The notes below the pieces were generated by a model. That model was given only the letters and a program-made list of their open reading frames with translations, did not search any database and was not told where the DNA came from. Below are positions 3,416 to 64,000 of a stretch of DNA of 64,000 bases, in pieces (the first letter of the stretch is position 1; the number at the start of each line of letters is the position of its first letter). The position numbers were made by a program, and so were the translations under genes. The stretch spans positions 15,624,001 to 15,688,000 of the forward strand of contig OZ024755.1 in assembly GCA_964016885.1 (NCBI GenBank). Direction: 5' to 3'. This DNA is from Eledone cirrhosa (lineage: Eukaryota).

Positions 3416-3622
3416 CTGTTTCTGATTTAGACAAGGCCAATAATTTGGAGGGAGGAGATAGTCGATTAAATCGACCGCGGTGCGTTACTGGTACTTTGTT
3501 TTATCGACCCTGTAAAGACGAAGGGCAAAGCTAACCTCGGCAGGATTCGAACGCAGAACCTAAAGAGACGTAACTATATGACACAAAGTACGTTGTCCGA
3601 CGCTCTACCAATACTTCGCCCT
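3416..3622 (-). mobile_element. tRNA-derived SINE family 1, long subfamily
   Basis: Minus strand has a tRNA-like head with B-box GTTCGAATCC, a body containing GGTCGATAAAACAAAGTACCAGT and the palindrome GTCGATTTAATCGAC. More than 10 homologous copies occur in the window. Confidence 0.88.
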
Positions 3623-5084
3623 AGTTATAACGATCATGAAAGTTCTTCTCCCATTATTTCGGAGAGTGTTTGTGAGGGCAGATTTCTCAGACACGCCTAC
3701 CTGAGAGTCCTATCGGAAGTAACCGTTAACAAATGATCCAGCTAGATTCCCAAGCAAGGCAAGCCTACGTCATGTATGTTATCCAACCAACTTTATCATG
3801 ATCTACCTCTGAAGGTCTCTTGCCGGTTGCCTTTGCTCATAAACTTTGTCCTGTGATTTTAATTAACAATTTAATGAATGTTATCTCTCAATCAAATATC
3901 TTCTTGCGTTCCGTGCCTCACGACTTATACGTGACGCTCTAAATTATGAATGTCGCTGTAGAATACAGTGCCAATAAATTTGTTTCTGGCATTATAATTT
4001 GCTGTTGCTGATTGTCAGAGCTTCTATTGTTTGCATAACCAACTTCATTCAAAAGACTTGTTGTGCAATACTTTGTCTTGGAATCCATACATCAAGTGAA
4101 ACATAAGACGTATAACCATGTTCTAACAGTTTTTGCCTTTATTTATTTCTAATAACTATTTGGCAAAGCGAATGCTATCATATTCCAGGGAATCTCGACG
4201 ATCTAAGTGGTTTCCTTTCGAATGTTTGTTTTTGTCAAATTGTTTAACCAACCGGTCGTTATTAAAATGAAATTACCTCTACGAACAGCATGGTTCTTAT
4301 TACAAGGGCTCGTTCCTGTTGTGGCATACTTGTATTGAAATCCATATCACCTTCCTCATTAGCATATGAATGAAAATATGTGCACATGTTAAAAATAATA
4401 TCTTAAGACATTGCAATCAGCTTTGTCTGTTTTTTGTTTAGTTTGGTTTAGGTGTTAGATTGTGAACTTTGCACTTTCAGTATTTTATGTCATATTTAGT
4501 GACGAAAATCTCATTTCAGTCTCACGTCATTCTTGTTACCATGGGTATCATAACAACGGGCGCAAACAGCTAAATTAAACGAATCCCTGAGTTGCTCTTC
4601 ATACCTAATCGAAGACACAGACCCCTTGAATGTTATGTAATATCTATCATGGAAATACGTATAGCAGCGATTGTGTAAGGAATAAATGAGAAATTCTAAA
4701 GTGTTGACTTCTACTTCATTATTAAACCTATAATCAAGAATAGCCAAATCTACATGTATACTTCGTCGAGTACATCACCAGCGCATCCTTGGCCTTCACC
4801 TGCCAATTGTCTCACATAGGCTCAATCAAAGTAGTGTATCCCCAACGAAATGTTGGTGATTAGGTGTGACGAAGTTTCCATTTAGGAAATGTTAAAACAC
4901 GACGGCATATATGCATACTTGCAGAACGACACCCCATAATTGTATGAGCCTCTGATGATGTCACATGGAAACTTAATGATATAACCATTGCATAATCATG
5001 TCTTTGAAATATATATAATGTAATAAAACAACCCTGTCTTAATATTCCATATATATTATATATATTATAGGGAAAGGGAGAGAA

Positions 5085-8810: not shown

Positions 8811-9003
8811 GGTTTCTGACTTAGGCAGAGGGAAAAGTCGATTAAATTGACTTTAGTGTATCACTGGTTCTTAATATTATAGACCCCGTAAGGATGAAAG
8901 GCAAAGCTAACCTCGGCAAGATTTGAACTCAGATCGTAAAAGGCCGTAACTATACCATAAAGCATGTTGTCCGACGCTCCACCGACAGCCAATCCATCGC
9001 CCT
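8811..9003 (-). mobile_element. SINE family 1, long subfamily
   Basis: GACCCCGTAAGGATGAAAGGCAAAGCTAACCTCGGCAAGATTTGAACTC matches the other copies. Confidence 0.88.
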
Positions 9004-9812
9004 AGTATATTATATATATTGCCACGAGATCTATGTCTGAAAAGTAGAGCTATATTCGATGACATCCATCCAGTCAGTATATTACAAATATATAATTTCG
9101 TAACCCTAGAGTACTAAAAAGCAACAATATATCAATCAATATTTTAACTGTGTATATAGAAAACTAAATTATATGTATGTACAATTTATTATATGCAACG
9201 TTTGAATGTTACTAGTGTTCACTACTAGATAAGTAACTATAATGTCATCAGATATTATTGAGTGATAGATTGTAATGAAACATATGTCTTGGGACTATAT
9301 CTATATGTATATGCATGCAATTGCGTGTATTCTCTGGTGAATTCACATCATTTATTTCCAAAGTATAATGATAAAATAATAAATATTTATTTATCTTTAC
9401 TATATAGATAATATTAATTGATTAGCCTTTTGTAATAAGTATCAATCAATCATCGGTATTGATTATATGAGTAGAGGAGAAAGGAGAAAACGAGCGGGTA
9501 TAGAGCACAACGACTATGCTGCTCCTCAATATATTATGGTTGAATGTGATATGAAGGTACCATAGGCAAGAATCTGAAAAGACACAACTAGCTAGTCGTT
9601 TCATTATTATTGTACTCACAAACATATATCTTACAAGAATTGTAAATTCACATACTAGAATATATATATAAAAGGAAATGAGAAAAAAAAAGGGGGGGGG
9701 GCTCGGAAAGCGCACCTGGTATATATTTAAAAAAGATCTTTATAACATGTACAAAAATGTTCCTTTATATAACGTGATCTGTATAGAATGTTTTCTAACA
9801 TCCACACTTTTT

Positions 9813-10230: not shown

Positions 10231-10411
10231 AATAATGGTTTTAGATTAAAGCACAAAGCCAACAATTTTGGAGGAGTGGAATGTCGATTAAATCGATCCC
10301 AGTGCGTTACTGGTACTTTATTTTATCGATCCATGTAAGGATGAAAAGCAAATCTACTCTCGGTGGGATTCAAACTTAGGACGTAAAGAGCCGTAACTAT
10401 ATACCACGAAG
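10231..10411 (-). mobile_element. SINE family 1, long subfamily, head truncated
   Basis: Core GTCGATTAAATCGATCCCAGTGCGTTACTGGTACTTTATTTTATCGA. Confidence 0.85.
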
Positions 10412-11740: not shown

Positions 11741-11744
<4 letters not shown>

Positions 11745-11912
11745 TGTTTCTACATTTGGCACAAGGCCAGCAATTAGTACATTACTGGTACTTTATTTTA
11801 TCGACCCCGTAAGGATGAAAGGCAAAGTTAACCTCGGCGGGATTTGAACTCAGATCATAAAGGGCCATAACTCTATGCTGCAAAGTATGGCATCCCACCC
11901 TTTACCGATACT
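11741..11912 (-). mobile_element. SINE family 1, short subfamily
   Basis: Homologous to 17429-17622; B-box GAGTTCAAATCCC on the minus strand. Confidence 0.88.
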
Positions 11913-12789: not shown

Positions 12790-12893
12790 ATATATATATA
12801 TATTATGTATTTCCGTAGAAAAGGTAAAGGAAAGAAGAGTGCTCTATGTATAGAACAGAGTTATCTAATTATATAATAAACGACACAATATAA

Positions 12894-12963
12894 TTATTCC
12901 ATTACCTAAGGTTTCATGAAACTAGACAATTCTAACGTCCATTTCGCTCATCAGATGAAATAA
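12894..12963 (-). ncRNA. Type I hammerhead ribozyme, canonical core
   Basis: Minus strand: UUAUUUCAU - CUGAUGA - GCGAAAUGGAC...GUCUAGUUUCAU - GAAAC CUUAG GUA - AUGGAAUAA. Stem I has 9 bp and stem III (ACCUUAGGU) is near-palindromic. Confidence 0.78.
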
Positions 12964-12988
12964 ATAAATGTGTGTGTGCGCGTGCGTG

Positions 12989-13491
12989 TGTAAAAGAAAT
13001 CAAAGAACGCCTACATACTCATACAATGTTTATTCGCTGGCAATGTTTCATCCATACCGTGGGGCAGGAATCATCAGAGCTTTATAAAGAAAAATATAGT
13101 GCTAAGTATAAGCTCTACCAAGCTTAGTCACACGAACATTAGGTATACAGTACAGGATAATAAGAGAGATTGGAAATAGAAAGGATGGAGAGAATGCGTA
13201 ATGGGGTTGTTATTCAACATTACGGCTACATATGAAGATATAGGCAGATTTTCTCTCAAGAGACGGAGGCACGTGAGGGCACACAGAAACAAATACAGGA
13301 TTTAAAGATAGTTAAAAAATATAATAATAATAATAAAGTAAAAGAAAAATAATAATATAAAAAAGGGTAAATAAATAATTTTAAAATTAAAGCACAAAAG
13401 CAACAGAGGAAGTTATGCATTAGTCACTATATATAACAGGTGATTTAGTTTCCCCATGACTTGGAGTTATAGAAATACTACGAGACCCCTA

Positions 13492-13494
<3 letters not shown>
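12989..13494 (-). mobile_element. HHR element family A, copy 1
   Basis: 12989-13380 aligns with 47500-47880 (AAAAGAAATCAAAGAACGCCTACATACTCATACAAT...). Abuts (TA)n at its right end. Confidence 0.75.
13030..13088 (-). ncRNA. Minimal type I hammerhead ribozyme, cleavage triplet mutated (GUC to GCC)
   Basis: Minus strand: GCU CUGAUGA UUCCUGCCCCACGGUAUGGAU GAAAC AUU GCC AGC. Confidence 0.7.
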
Positions 13495-38820: not shown

Positions 38821-38912
38821 TAGTAATAATAATAAATTTGAAGACTAAAATCCAAAGAGGGCTCGATAAGGATATATCAAATATATAAGAACCGTAGAGC
38901 AAATATTTATTA
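38821..38912 (-). mobile_element. TA-embedded element family B tail
   Basis: TAGTAATAATAATAAATTTGAAGACTAAAATCCAAAGAGGGCTCGATAAGGATA is near-identical to the copies at 32560 and 63030. Confidence 0.85.
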
Positions 38913-38998
38913 AAGAAGTGTGTATGTTTGTAAGTGTGAGTGTACCAGTGTAGTTATGTACAAGTCTGAAGAACATATGTGTATATATATATATATAT

Positions 38999-39562: not shown

Positions 39563-40050
39563 GTACATGTTGAATTAACCCCTCCCCCTATAAACCGCTC
39601 ATGGGCATTCTCCAGTGCTGTACTTTAACGTACATTCAGTAGAGTACACTATTATACATGTATATTTTAAACAATCCAGATTTAGTAAAACAAATCTATT
39701 TAAAATTTATCAAGAATTATTTTAAATGTTCCAATAAATAATTTGTAATCCTTTAGACAAGTAAATAAGACAAAACTGCAACAAATACATTATTATTTTG
39801 TTTTTAAATGATTTTATACATGATAATACACTATATTATTTTATGTTGTTAATTTTAGCATTTATTTAAATGCGATTTTATGTTTTTATTATTATCTATA
39901 TTCTGTAATGTTGTTGGCATACTGATGTAAAACTGAATCAGTTGCCATAACACGAAGATTTTTATTTGTCATATACTATTAAGAAAAACCGTGACTACAG
40001 TTTTAAAAGATACTCAATACATTAGTAGAGTATAGACATTTTCGTATTTC

Positions 40051-40152
40051 ATATAGAAATGACTTTTTACAGGACCGCTTCATTCATATAAAGTCATCAG
40101 GAAATTCCTGATGATTTTATAGTAATGAAACAGTTCTAGTCCTGTGGAAGTC

Positions 40153-40160
<8 letters not shown>
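40051..40160. repeat. Imperfect ~110-bp palindrome with CTGATGA on both strands
   Basis: Centred on CATCAGGAAATTCCTGATG with arms AAATGACTT...AAGTCATTT. The plus arm reads CTGATGA...GAAAC...GTC. Confidence 0.65.
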
Positions 40161-43096: not shown

Positions 43097-43660
43097 AAGG
43101 TTTAGCAAATAATGAAAAAGTTTCAAAATAAATTTTAAAAAATTGACTTTACCTACTATAGTTACCTTTACCGATCGGTTTCGAATCCCAAAAATAAACG
43201 GAGACCATACGGCCTTCGTTGCAAAGAAAGATTCTCGTCAGAAGGTTCTTTTCATTCGAAGAATATAAAATTCTTGAATTTAAATTACGAACTAGCGCTA
43301 TCCAAAACTGTTCCCGAGATGAGAGTGAATGAAGTGGAATCAATTTTTTCAAGGGCCGAAGTAAAGATAGAGGCAGAGGGAGGTAGGTCAAATCGGCCGC
43401 CACTATCACTAGCAGCAGTCGGAACGACCAAATTTTTTTCTCAACATAGAGGAGAATAGTAAATATAGGATATGTGTTCCTTCACGCACAAGGCGCTAAG
43501 GGACGCATGTATTGTCCAACGAAATGCCAATGTGGTTCAATGGCAGGTTAATAAATTAACGAGCCAGAACATATATAAACAAGGTTTAGCAAATAATGAA
43601 AAAGTTTCAAAATAAATACATGCGTCCCTTAGCGCCTTGTGCGTGAAGGAACACATATCC

Positions 43661-43663
<3 letters not shown>
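43088..43663 (-). mobile_element. Terminally redundant 484-bp HHR unit (family E) with an inverted 49-bp end
   Basis: Direct repeat at 43088-43133 and 43572-43617; inverted repeat at ~43465-43512 and 43615-43663; flanked by (TA)n; no credible ORF. Confidence 0.8.
43164..43246 (-). ncRNA. Type I hammerhead ribozyme, fully canonical core
   Basis: Minus strand: ACCUU CUGACGA GAAUC...GAUUC GAAAC CGAUCG GUA AAGGU. Stem I and the stem II base each have 5 bp, and stem III (ACCGAUCGGU) is palindromic. Confidence 0.88.
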
Positions 43664-47282: not shown

Positions 47283-47476
47283 CTTCTGCGTCCACAGATT
47301 GCTTTTGTTTAGTTTCAAAATATCCTGTTAAGGGTGAAAGCAGCAATTCTTTGCTTAAACTTTAATCTGTTATTTTAATAAATATTTGCTCAATGGTCTT
47401 ATATATTTTGATATATATATATTATCCTTATCGAGCCCTCTTCGGATTTTAGTCTTCACATTTATTATTATTACTA
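47282..47476 (+). mobile_element. TA-embedded element family B, longest colinear copy
   Basis: Contains both pieces seen inverted at 32560-32716; ends TTTATTATTATTACTA followed by (TA)n. Confidence 0.78.
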
Positions 47477-47539
47477 TATATATAATATATATGTTATATA
47501 TGTAAAAGAAATCAAAGAACGCCTACATACTCATACAAT

Positions 47540-47600
47540 TTTTATTTGCTGACAATGTTTCATCCATACCATTGGGCAGGAATCATCAGAGCTTTATAAA
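47540..47600 (-). ncRNA. Minimal type I hammerhead ribozyme, canonical core
   Basis: Minus strand: GCU CUGAUGA UUCCUGCCCAAUGGUAUGGAU GAAAC AUU GUC AGC. Confidence 0.82.
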
Positions 47601-47949
47601 CAAAAATACAGTGCTGAGTATAAGCTCTACCGAGCTTAGTCACATGAACATTAGAAATACAATAGAGGGTAACAAGGGGGAGATCGGAAATGGCGAGTAT
47701 GGAGAGCGTGCATAGTGTGGTTCTTATTCAGCACTACAGCTAAATGCAATGGTACAGGCAGATTTTTCACAAGATGCAGAAGCAGGTGAGGGAACATAAA
47801 AGCAAAAAGTATAAACAATAGTTAAAACATATAATAATAAAGTAAAAGGAAAATAATAATATAGAGAGATTAAAAAATATTATTTTTTTTCTTTTTTTTT
47901 CTTTTTTATTTTTTTTTATTTTTTTTATTTTTTCAGCACTGTATTTTTG

Positions 47950-48010
47950 TTTATAAAGCTCTGATGATTCCTGCCCAATGGTATGGATGAAACATTGTCA
48001 GTTAATAAAA
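47950..48010 (+). ncRNA. Minimal type I hammerhead ribozyme, canonical core
   Basis: AGCU CUGAUGA(47961) UUCCUGCCCAAUGGUAUGGAU GAAAC AUU GUC(47997-47999) AGUU. Confidence 0.82.
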
Positions 48011-48150
48011 ATTGTATGAGTATGTAGGCGTTCTTTGATTTCTTTTACATATAACGACTCTGTTCATGTACATTGAGCTTATACAATACTGCCACAAATA
48101 CGACACGGTACAGGTGCGTTTATGCGCATACGCTCCGTGGTCTACATAAA

Positions 48151-48930
<780 letters not shown>

Positions 48931-49358
48931 GAAAGAAACAAAAGAAACAAACAAACAATAAGGAAAGAAAGACAGAAAGATGGAAAAAAAGAAAGACGGA
49001 ATGGTAAATCTCTAAATTGTAGGAAACCATTGTTGAGGAATAAATCAATAAGTGGTCCGAATTAACGACAGCTTGTTACTGTATAAAATCTATAAGCTCG
49101 TTTCGATTGTTATCTATGCAAGCAACTCACCGTGACATGATGTGTCTTAGTTTGTATACGACATTGGTAGACATAGCTATGATATTTACAGCATATCTAA
49201 CTCTAAACGTCTCCTCTTCACTGCGTTCTTCATATATATATATATATATATATACATACATGTTTGTGTGTGTGTATGTGTTTGTATGTGTGGGTCTGAT
49301 AGTGTGCATGAGTATTTGTGTTTATGTATGTGTGTGTGTGTGTAAATATGTATCAGTG

Positions 49359-61550: not shown

Positions 61551-61750
61551 CACAAGGCCAACAATTTTTGGGGAAGGAGAAAGACGATTAAATCGACACC
61601 AGTGCGTTACTGGTACTTTATATTATCACTCTCTTAGGATGAAAAGCAAAGCTACCCTCGGCAGGATTTGAACTCAGAACGTAATGTGCCATAAGTCTAT
61701 GCCACAAAGCATGTCTAACGTTCTACTAATACTGCCATTCTCACCGCCCT
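61551..61750 (-). mobile_element. SINE family 1, long subfamily
   Basis: GACGATTAAATCGACACCAGTGCGTTACTGGTAC...GGATTTGAACTCAGAACG...CACCGCCCT. Confidence 0.88.
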
Positions 61751-62768
61751 TTCTGTTTCCTAATAATACAGTCCAATAATTGGTTATTGTCAATCCAATG
61801 TATTCAGATATGTTTAATTAAGTCTTGTTATAATTGTTCATAAGATCGAAACACACAGCTGGCTCTAAGAATGTAAAAGAAATATATATTTAGTAATGTA
61901 TGTCTCAGCTATATTCTACATTTCAGGAGAATTTCTTTGCTGTTTATATTTTTTAGTTGTTTTTGCCTTTATTGCTATTGTTATTGTTATCTTTGTTGTT
62001 GTTATTTTTTCTTCTTGATTTGATGTTTGTTATTTCACTATTAATTGTGGGTGGTCTAAATTCAAGACTGTCGTTATTGAAGTGACAAGAATAAATGGTT
62101 AAATGAATCGGGGGAAAAAAAGAAAATATTTTTATTAAATTTAGAATATAAAACACTTTAATCTGAAACCATACGCTGAGATCTTTTAACAATGAGTAAA
62201 AGTGGAATAATAGGAAATATATGAAGAGGAAAAGCGAAGAAGAAAAAAACTAGAATTGCTGCCGGGGACAAATAAAAGGAAATAAAAGTGGGTGGAGTGA
62301 AGCAAACACAAAAGAGAAAAGGATAAAAAGAGAGACGGACAGAGGGAGGAAGCAGGGAGGGAAAGATAACGAGAAACTAAGAATACAAAATGGCGAATTT
62401 TTAGAGTAACAGATCGATTGATGGGAGAGGCAAGATATAGGAGAAATGTGTAAACGATACTTGAAGTAATTGGCTCATTTAATAGGCCTTACGTCAGAGA
62501 TAATCCGTCTGGGTCATTTAATTGACCCGACAAAGAAATAAATTATTAATCGGTCGTCCGTTTCTATTCTACCCCTGTTGCTTCTTTACTATTGTTTCTG
62601 TTTGCACGCAAAGTCTGAACGTTGGGAGTTACAGAAACAAAAACGTAAAGTAAATTCCCAGCTGGTCAGAACCTTAATTCGGTTCCTATCGAGAGTTGAA
62701 TCCATTTTACTTCATAAGAATTTATGATGAAAAGACATGAATACATACATATACATATATATATACAT

Positions 62769-63022: not shown

Positions 63023-63126
63023 TTATTAAAATAAATATTTGCTCTACGGTTCTTATATATTTGATATATATTTATCCTTATCGAGCCCTCTTTGGATTTT
63101 AGTCTTCAAATTTATTATTATTACTA
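63018..63126 (+). mobile_element. TA-embedded element family B tail with a 15-bp inverted stub
   Basis: Inverted ATATTTATTAAAATA followed by AATATTTGCTCTACGGTTC...TTTATTATTATTACTA. Confidence 0.82.
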
Positions 63127-63191
63127 TATATATATATATATATATATATACGATATTAAATAAATGGAAACTATATTTATAAAACCATATT

Positions 63192-63257
63192 TATTTCATT
63201 ATATATATTTCAGGGATATCATATTAAAAATATGTTATGCCTTCTTCAGACAAAATA
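63192..63257 (-). ncRNA. Type I hammerhead ribozyme, left arm
   Basis: Mirror copy of 63418-63483. Confidence 0.75.
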
Positions 63258-63417
63258 CAATATAAACAGTCTTATAAATAGATAGATTCGACATACCTTT
63301 CAACTTCGACTTCTATTTGAAAAGTTGATTTGGTAGTACTACCAAATCAACTTTTCAAATAGAAGTCGAAGTTGAAAGGTATGTCGAATCTATCTATTTA
63401 TAAGACTGTTTATATTG

Positions 63418-63483
63418 TATTTTGTCTGAAGAAGGCATAACATATTTTTAATATGATATCCCTGAAATATATATAATGAAATA
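63418..63483 (+). ncRNA. Type I hammerhead ribozyme, right arm
   Basis: UAUUUUGU CUGAAGA AGG...CCU GAAAU AUAU AUA AUGAAAUA. Stem I has 8 bp including G-U pairs, stem III is palindromic (AU)n, and the cleavage triplet is AUA. Confidence 0.75.
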
Positions 63484-64000
63484 AATATGGTTTTATAAAT
63501 ATAGTTTCCATTTATTTAATATCGTAAATATACTCCAAATACTTGTTGAGTGCTTTTATATCAGTTATAAATATTTACTCGTTGTTAACCCAACAATTTA
63601 AATAAAACTTTGCATATATATATATATGTATGTATATATATATATATAGGGGTAGAACACTGGAAGGTAATATCTGTAGTGGTAGAGCACTGAGTCCATG
63701 GGACGAGTTAGGTAGAACTGGTAACACGACAGTTAGTTCACCATAACGAGAACAGTTGTTTCACCTTAGCGGATCTGTAATGATTATTGCATAATAGCTC
63801 CACACTAAAGTACATATAATGCAATAAATACGATAATGTAACATCTAACTTAACATTTATTTCATATATGTGTGTGTCTGTGTGTGTGTATGTGTGACTG
63901 GAATAAGTAGAAGAATAAATAAATGAATATGAGGTAAACATGGGTAGAACAGGTGGTAACCACTGTTACAATGAGGGATGCTGATGATGCGGTTGGTTAA

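Follow-up and report, generated by a model that had tools for sequence, protein, structure and literature searches.

An inverted repeat in the genome of Eledone cirrhosa carries a hammerhead ribozyme (HHR) motif in each of its arms, which raises the question of whether the two motifs constitute a working device, belong to a unit that moves as a whole, reflect an artefact, or were brought in by a retroelement. The locus (here the 47k locus; its repeat, family A) lies within a stretch of 64,000 nucleotides, analysed as a whole and referred to as the window. Our best explanation, to which we give a probability of roughly 0.7, is one retrotransposition of an HHR-bearing Penelope-like element (PLE) into (TA)n, an assignment that is drawn from the layout and the HHR, no reverse transcriptase (RT) or GIY-YIG ORF having been found.

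Anatomy of the insertion and its surroundings

The window is AT-rich (GC mostly 25-40%), with abundant TA (55 tracts) and other microsatellites. Among 209 stop-free segments scanned (145 + 64; a selection rather than every frame), there were no confident Pfam matches and none to RT or GIY-YIG, the 9 + 1 weak hits all being below the cut-off, and the window looks like non-coding animal DNA. Repeats were mapped by BLAST; a whole-window repeat finder was swamped by TA arrays. The HHR descriptor comprised both boxes, helices I-III and the NUH site, with 100 block-wise dinucleotide shuffles as control. Other repeats include a TA-based satellite array of about 6 kb with a strong C over G skew (22288-28466), a perfect 49-bp inverted repeat around 102 nt (43465-43513 / 43615-43663) that adjoins (TA)n and in which no HHR box was seen, and a dispersed SINE-like family of about 170-200 nt, whose copies are 75-92% identical (3431-3625, 8828-9006, 10252-10411, 11742-11912, 17427-17625, 29079-29252, 31299-31392 and 61551-61753). 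One dispersed repeat of the window may resemble an octopus SINE.

Features of the 47k locus and its paralog (positions in the window)
Feature	Position	Strand	Description
Left target flank	47466..47496	.	TA-rich tract 3' of another repeat's end (47329-47461)
Left arm	47497..47617 (47493 with 2-nt TA indel)	-	3' end of a longer, 5'-truncated copy; no tail
Type I minimal-type HHR	47548..47592	-	3-bp helix I, 7-bp bulged helix II, U.U base, 2-bp helix III, palindromic loop, GUC, C17 = 47551
Rest of conserved terminal module	47618..47655	-	7-bp hairpin 47621-47638 kept in paralog; X1 depth step ~47640-47685
Body	47656..47871	-	non-coding, pyrimidine/U-rich in sense, 23% diverged from paralog, multicopy
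8-bp palindrome at head-to-head junction	47872..47888	.	
T-run filler	47881..47932	+	46/52 T; units T6-9 ending in A or C
Right arm	47933..48053	+	inverted copy of the same 3' end, more strongly truncated
Second HHR	47958..48002	+	C3 47961, G12 47989, U16.1 47998, C17 47999; T at 48002 private to this copy
One-sided tail	48054..48145-48150	+	92-97 nt; end blurs into TA; part of family consensus
Right target flank	48146..48926	.	long (TA)n microsatellite
Paralog	12989..13385	-	solo, 5'-truncated, same 3' end, without inverted arm, without tail; HHR 13036-13080

BLAST aligned the two arms over 121 nt, 119 of which are identical (98.3%; E 1.9e-56), and the 125 bp given by a first-pass annotation of the same DNA are reached when the left arm is extended over the TA indel. 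The only internal differences are two adjacent bases, CA at 47548/47547 vs TT at 48002/48003. The arms are placed head-to-head and both point outward, the left copy extending for about 380 nt on the minus strand and the right copy for 121 nt on the plus strand, followed by the tail; the T-rich run at the junction and the tail of some 95 nt, both reported by that annotation, are present, the latter on the right side only. The left arm and the paralog share their 3' end (47501 aligns to 12989), and the three copies, namely the two arms' copies and the paralog, start at three different points, 5' truncation thus being variable. With TA-rich DNA on both sides, no target-site duplication is discernible at the insertion. 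On the right side, a 770-nt TA array (48151-48935) bears the short word TTCAGAAA at both ends.

No reading frame stays open from the HHR to the end of the tail, and in each of the three copies the frames that begin with an ATG in helix II are closed by a stop before the arm ends. The tail starts with a small hairpin, for which a 19/22 match (5/2000 shuffles) was found to the hairpin located 3' of an HHR-like motif at 12954(-). This motif (12800-12965, minus strand; C3 12954, GUA site, loop UUA) follows right after the 3' end of the paralog. Folding above that of shuffles was not seen for the HHR arms (z -1.1 to -1.5), the tail (-0.59) or the upstream hairpin at 47621-47638 (0.02).

Two further inverted arrangements were observed in the window. 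The first is a perfect 189-bp palindrome without spacer (63149-63526), which belongs to an unrelated family with TA flanks, holds HHR-like motifs at 63426(+) and 63249(-), and continues into a one-sided extension of about 87 nt (63149-63613) in the same layout as family A; this extension was rejected as a relative of the family A tail, since 1447 of 2000 shuffles were as good. The second is a decayed inverted pair (40030-40160), whose junction lies immediately 5' of two CUGAUGA boxes (40108+, 40100-). As the layout recurs in both, it is generic in the window and not special to family A.

The hammerhead motif

Each arm reads GCU-CUGAUGA, a 21-nt helix II, GAAAC-AUU-GUC and AGC or AGU, with C3 at 47589(-) and 47961(+). 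The strict descriptor gave four hits in the window, the 47k pair and the pair at 63426(+)/63249(-), vs a total of two over the 100 shuffles (0.02 expected per shuffled window), confirming the HHR motif that had been proposed for each arm. These motifs had also been called canonical minimal hammerheads, of which the minimal type stands and the canonical part does not: the 7-bp helix II, which has a mid-stem bulge, shows U.U in place of the consensus G10.1-C11.1, a pair present in >80% of the published PLE HHR consensus as given in PMC4209133, and Rfam hammerhead models had no match in the window at gathering score, nor was any hammerhead family among the 2 and 7 matches at E<=10. Because of the U.U helix II base and the lack of an Rfam match, we regard the family A HHR as a minimal-type variant. 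A U directly before GAAA, not the consensus C11.1, was read by eye in all of the HHR-like motifs at 47968/47988, 63433/63463, 12947/12915 and 40115/40126 (opposite U, A, G and U, respectively), and may be a lineage trait.

Helix III is a near-palindrome (ACAU.UGU) whose self-duplex holds 6 of 7 pairs (-2.3 kcal/mol), loop III being of 3 nt with a central mismatch in the dimer. Nearest-neighbour energies favour a fold that would be inactive, the cleavage site being paired with the CUGAUGA box, for both the monomer (-11.2 vs -3.8 kcal/mol for the active fold) and the dimer (-26.3 vs -17.3 kcal/mol active); such energies are weak evidence, given that these models ignore core contacts, and the modelled preference would fit reports that PLE hammerheads are weakly active or act with protein assistance. 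The first-pass annotation deduced from the 2-bp stem III that activity would occur mainly as a dimer. This is plausible, considering that helix III is palindromic, that the common variant 47995 T>C would hit its unpaired centre only, and that related minimal HHRs are described to cleave better as dimers (PMC4209133, PMC7229834); for instance, the axolotl HHR_Amex2, which also has U.U, was 22% cleaved in an hour as a monomer and far better as a dimer (PMC7229834). What fails is the twins as mutual partners: lying on opposite strands, they are unable to partner in cis. In an RNA reading through the insertion, 118-120 of the 121 arm bases are predicted to pair, giving a hairpin of about 120 bp.

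A pyrimidine tract ending in AG (47943-47957, plus strand) is located just 5' of helix I, in a position matching the end of the D. virilis Penelope intron, and constitutes a putative splice acceptor.

Paralog and further copies of family A

The paralog aligned to the left copy over 12989-13359 with 81.8% identity in 373 columns (BLAST). It had been annotated as an inactivated copy at 12989-13494 with GCC at the cleavage triplet; the GCC is present (U16.1>C at 13040), whereas nothing in the 47k copy corresponds to the segment 13385-13494, which is thus only a putative part of the paralog. To call the paralog inactivated was an overstatement, for judging by the sequence the GCC is probably a private mutation, or decay, in one copy that was dead already, and slow cleavage, rather than none, is described for NHH sites (PMC3138052).

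Divergence between the two copies is not uniform, as a comparison of identity along them, suggested by the first-pass annotation, revealed. Substitutions affect 14 of 165 columns at 47501-47665 and 48 of 213 at 47666-47880 (Fisher p 2.4e-4), in agreement with the more diverged upstream body that had been described, and the best change-point falls at 47655, with 10/154 vs 52/224 substitutions on its two sides (6.5% vs 23%) and none of 2000 permutations as strong. The idea that the ribozyme and the terminal segment are under more constraint than the body therefore holds for the terminal module of about 155 nt as a whole, but not for the ribozyme above the rest of the module: in this pairwise comparison the HHR is no better kept than the remaining terminal part (43/47 vs 108/118, p=1). 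This conservation fits master elements that are under constraint, and it also fits a terminal module that is exchanged from one subfamily to another.

Four of 23 public sequencing runs were compared at 80% likeness, yielding 493 contigs in X1, 46 contigs in X3, 2686 reads in X21 and no family A record in X10, an RNA run from another organism; 16 runs with a word share of 0.07, X10 among them, were left out as evidence. The tables obtained cover 40 of 133 variant rows, 18 of 125 loose ends and 16 of 541 pieces, and absences from them are soft. Judged by sequence likeness, family A is multicopy in public contigs. At 7 of the 21 variant rows checked (47551-47809), at least 85% of the X1 depth differs from the 47k copy, and the paralog carries the majority letter at six of these and a gap at one; therefore, part of the body divergence is specific to the 47k lineage.

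Among the pieces listed, four contigs span the arm into the tail, with 10-22 letters differing. All of the X1 depth at 48057 (2721.6/2721.6), and likewise at 48092, differs from the 47k copy; since X1 lacks the tail alleles of this copy, the tail depth stems from other copies and the tail belongs to the family. An ATG in the tail was rejected as a consensus feature, as 1032/1131 of the X1 depth differs at that base. Upstream of the arm, other copies run on as the left copy does and not into the T-run (X1 loose ends at 47950 and 47957), and the 47k junction is therefore local. The AG at 47957, part of the putative splice acceptor, is commoner still in other copies (47957 A>G).

These observations bear on the possibility that only one repeat copy is real and that the inversion arose as a fold-back artefact of the assembly or of long reads. 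No read or contig among the pieces listed spans the whole insertion, and the comparison left out the T-run as repetitive, both of which would suit an artefact. However, the arms differ at two bases, the right-arm T being private, with C in 4173/4493 of the X1 depth at 48002 and the 47k copy as the odd one, and a fold-back could not have produced the family-derived tail that the right side has and the left side lacks. We consider this reading highly improbable.

A similarly small chance is left to the view that the insertion moves or acts as one unit, be it a working cassette of twin ribozymes or a MITE-like element whose arms are genuine terminal inverted repeats. The near identity of the arms and the intact core and GUC in both would be as expected of a cassette, but it is largely refuted by the remaining copies and the layout: the paralog is solo and has no inverted arm, other copies lack the T-run upstream of the arm, the tail is on one side only, the HHRs lie on opposite strands so that read-through RNA is a hairpin, and the 63k pair has a different centre, without spacer. 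Likewise, where a MITE has symmetrical, shared terminal inverted repeats and a fixed target-site duplication, here the paralog is solo, the tail one-sided and the junction not shared. On this analysis, the HHR at the 47k locus is a passenger rather than a working twin-ribozyme device.

Variation within the HHR, among the rows listed, affects loop II (47979; indels at 47574, 47976 and 47980), the centre of loop III (47995), C17>U (47551 and 47999; common) and 48002; both boxes, G16.2 and U16.1 are free of variation in these rows. Summed depth in X1 reaches 9693 at 47614-47637, mostly outside the duplicated arm, vs about 600-1500 in body and tail, summed contig depth not being equal to copy number; X3 shows no step between module (31-76) and body (31-107). 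Contig loose ends at 47659 and 47672 reveal related copies that keep the terminal module and have different bodies. In the RAD reads of X21, an abundant sister family shares only 47958-48010 and has a GUU site and loop ACU, with 1555 and 1729 reads bearing unrelated flanks.

Pattern scans for relatives in metagenome and viral contigs gave no loci. Two hits, one in a metagenome and one bacterial (L001, L002), consisted of 32- and 21-nt matches without the rest of the motif and were rejected as chance. Two short motifs of the family were not found in the available portion of the PMC8557442 supplement. A search for a published account of family A returned general papers only; subscription journals or Repbase/Dfam may catalogue it.

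Origin of the locus and comparison with known elements

The known class of inverted pLTR plus tail of PLEs accounts for every part of the 47k locus. According to Craig 2021 (PMC8557442) and a curation guide (PMC8969392), PLE insertions are 5'-truncated, and many have next to them a second truncated copy in inverted orientation, plus a 30-40-bp tail at one end; an HHR in the pLTR and a microsatellite bias were also reported by Craig 2021, and Arkhipova 2013 (PMC3846280) described head-to-head inversions whose junction palindromes were read as self-priming. Cervera and De la Pena 2014 (PMC4209133) attributed to truncated PLEs dual minimal HHRs located about 100-700 bp apart on opposite strands, a range that includes the 372 nt from C3 to C3 at the 47k locus. 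Conforming to the endonuclease-positive (EN+) PLE insertion units described in PMC3846280, PMC8557442 and PMC8969392, the locus shows head-to-head truncated copies with a fixed 3' end and variable 5' truncation, an element-derived tail on one arm, a junction palindrome, a probable AT-rich microsatellite target and an HHR near the 3' end. It departs from these published units in its 92-97-nt tail (vs 30-40, a length that is an optional feature and not class-defining), in the 52-nt T-run at the junction, and in that neither an ORF remnant nor a target-site duplication was seen. Poseidon, Neptune, Nematis and Hydra are candidate clades, the layout fitting PLEs without clade assignment.

The ribozyme itself points in the same direction. 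PLE HHRs are characterized by a long helix II, a short helix I, a palindromic helix III, and U-rich 5' and AU-rich 3' flanks (PMC4209133), and family A resembles the metazoan minimal forms in that source (D. virilis, shrimp and mosquito, with small palindromic helix III) in its CUGANGA and GAAA boxes, 3-4 bp helix I, 7-bp helix II with mid-stem bulge, NUH site, and U-rich upstream and AU-rich downstream sequence; its U.U and its loop III, of 3 nt and mismatched at the centre of the dimer, are unlike the consensus published there. Frangieh 2024 (PMC11167929) showed that both strands are cleaved and extended by a PLE protein, and that two RT start sites flank the tail; in PAc (Poseidon, Anolis carolinensis), as in family A, two defined 3' ends bracket a tail 3' of the HHR and the target is AT-rich. 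The PAc ORF, as described there, begins within helix II and extends across the tail, unlike the helix II frames found here, and family A likewise differs from both PAc and Pen2a, in which the ORF starts in the pLTR. According to the same source, the PLE HHR needs protein, and it is dispensable for insertion in vitro, where catalytic mutants still insert (PMC11167929).

By analogy with this published biology, an RT/GIY-YIG protein from a full copy elsewhere would have nicked AT-rich DNA and reverse-transcribed the pLTR twice. A first cDNA of about 380 nt, from an inner start site, would give the left copy without tail, and a second of about 215 nt, started some 95 nt further 3', would give the tail and the right arm; the truncated 5' ends would then be joined head-to-head, bridged by the 8-bp fold-back and by a T-run that arose through slippage. 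In an alternative joining route, found in print, which may also apply here, a single template primes itself and one of the ends is then resected. The HHR would be the usual minimal hammerhead of the pLTR, cleaving only with a second same-strand copy (in a tandem master transcript or in trans) or with help from protein.

EN+ PLEs are defined by a linked ORF for a telomerase-like RT with a GIY-YIG endonuclease, which direct pLTRs flank as a partial tandem; the window contains no full-length copy. Given that the copies are 5'-truncated, no RT or GIY-YIG match is expected, and since no such gene was found, a truncated autonomous PLE and a PLE-dependent non-autonomous element are not separable. The latter, retrozyme- or SINE-like, would be a ~155-nt module of hairpin, HHR and element end plus tail that lacks an ORF, is attached to varying non-coding bodies and relies on a PLE enzyme acting in trans, and we regard it as possible though clearly less probable. 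The excess of X1 depth over the module, the loose ends leading into other bodies, the sister family that shares the HHR only, and the lack of an ORF in body or tail speak for it, as do reports of retrozymes as pLTR derivatives (bioRxiv 10.64898/2026.07.22.740005) and of pLTRs formed by non-autonomous Chlamys PLEs (PMC8557442). Conversely, the depth step is missing from X3, and 5' truncation together with diverged subfamilies gives an equal depth profile. Family A also shares with the non-LTR retrozyme of axolotl HHR_Amex2 a type I motif, a 2-bp helix III, the U.U at the helix II base and the absence of an ORF (PMC7229834); nevertheless, non-LTR retrozymes are described as head-to-tail tandem repeats of 150-450 bp with circular RNA, whereas the family A copies, known here from DNA, are dispersed, truncated and inverted, with none of the three in the window in tandem. 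The tail was rejected as the start of a next tandem unit, having no match to the upstream part of the paralog (best local scores 21-22).

A more specific version of this proposal, which we hold as tentative and rather improbable, is that a non-autonomous PLE-dependent module of about 155 nt (hairpin, U.U-type HHR and 3' end) is retained by, or exchanged between, subfamilies whose bodies differ, outnumbering them about tenfold, with RT start sites about 95 nt apart, not 30-40. If true, the ~87-nt extension at 63k would make long tails lineage-wide and offer a natural experiment on what determines tail length.

Understood as a single PLE retrotransposition, the 47k locus adds one more family to a documented insertion class, with only the long tail as an unusual trait. 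The abundance of the family, the visible variation in its loops and cleavage base, and a tail more than twice the published length would make it a convenient test case for the role of PLE HHRs in vivo, to which the locus alone gives no answer.

A separate repeat, with one fixed end running into (TA)n and the other end variable, was observed at 47329-47461, 63024-63111, 32575-32717 and 38836-38914, with a partial inversion at 32.6 kb. Two of its four TA tracts, out of the 55 in the window, hold the two inverted HHR pairs, and this repeat is possibly another microsatellite-targeting retroelement, supplying preferred targets.
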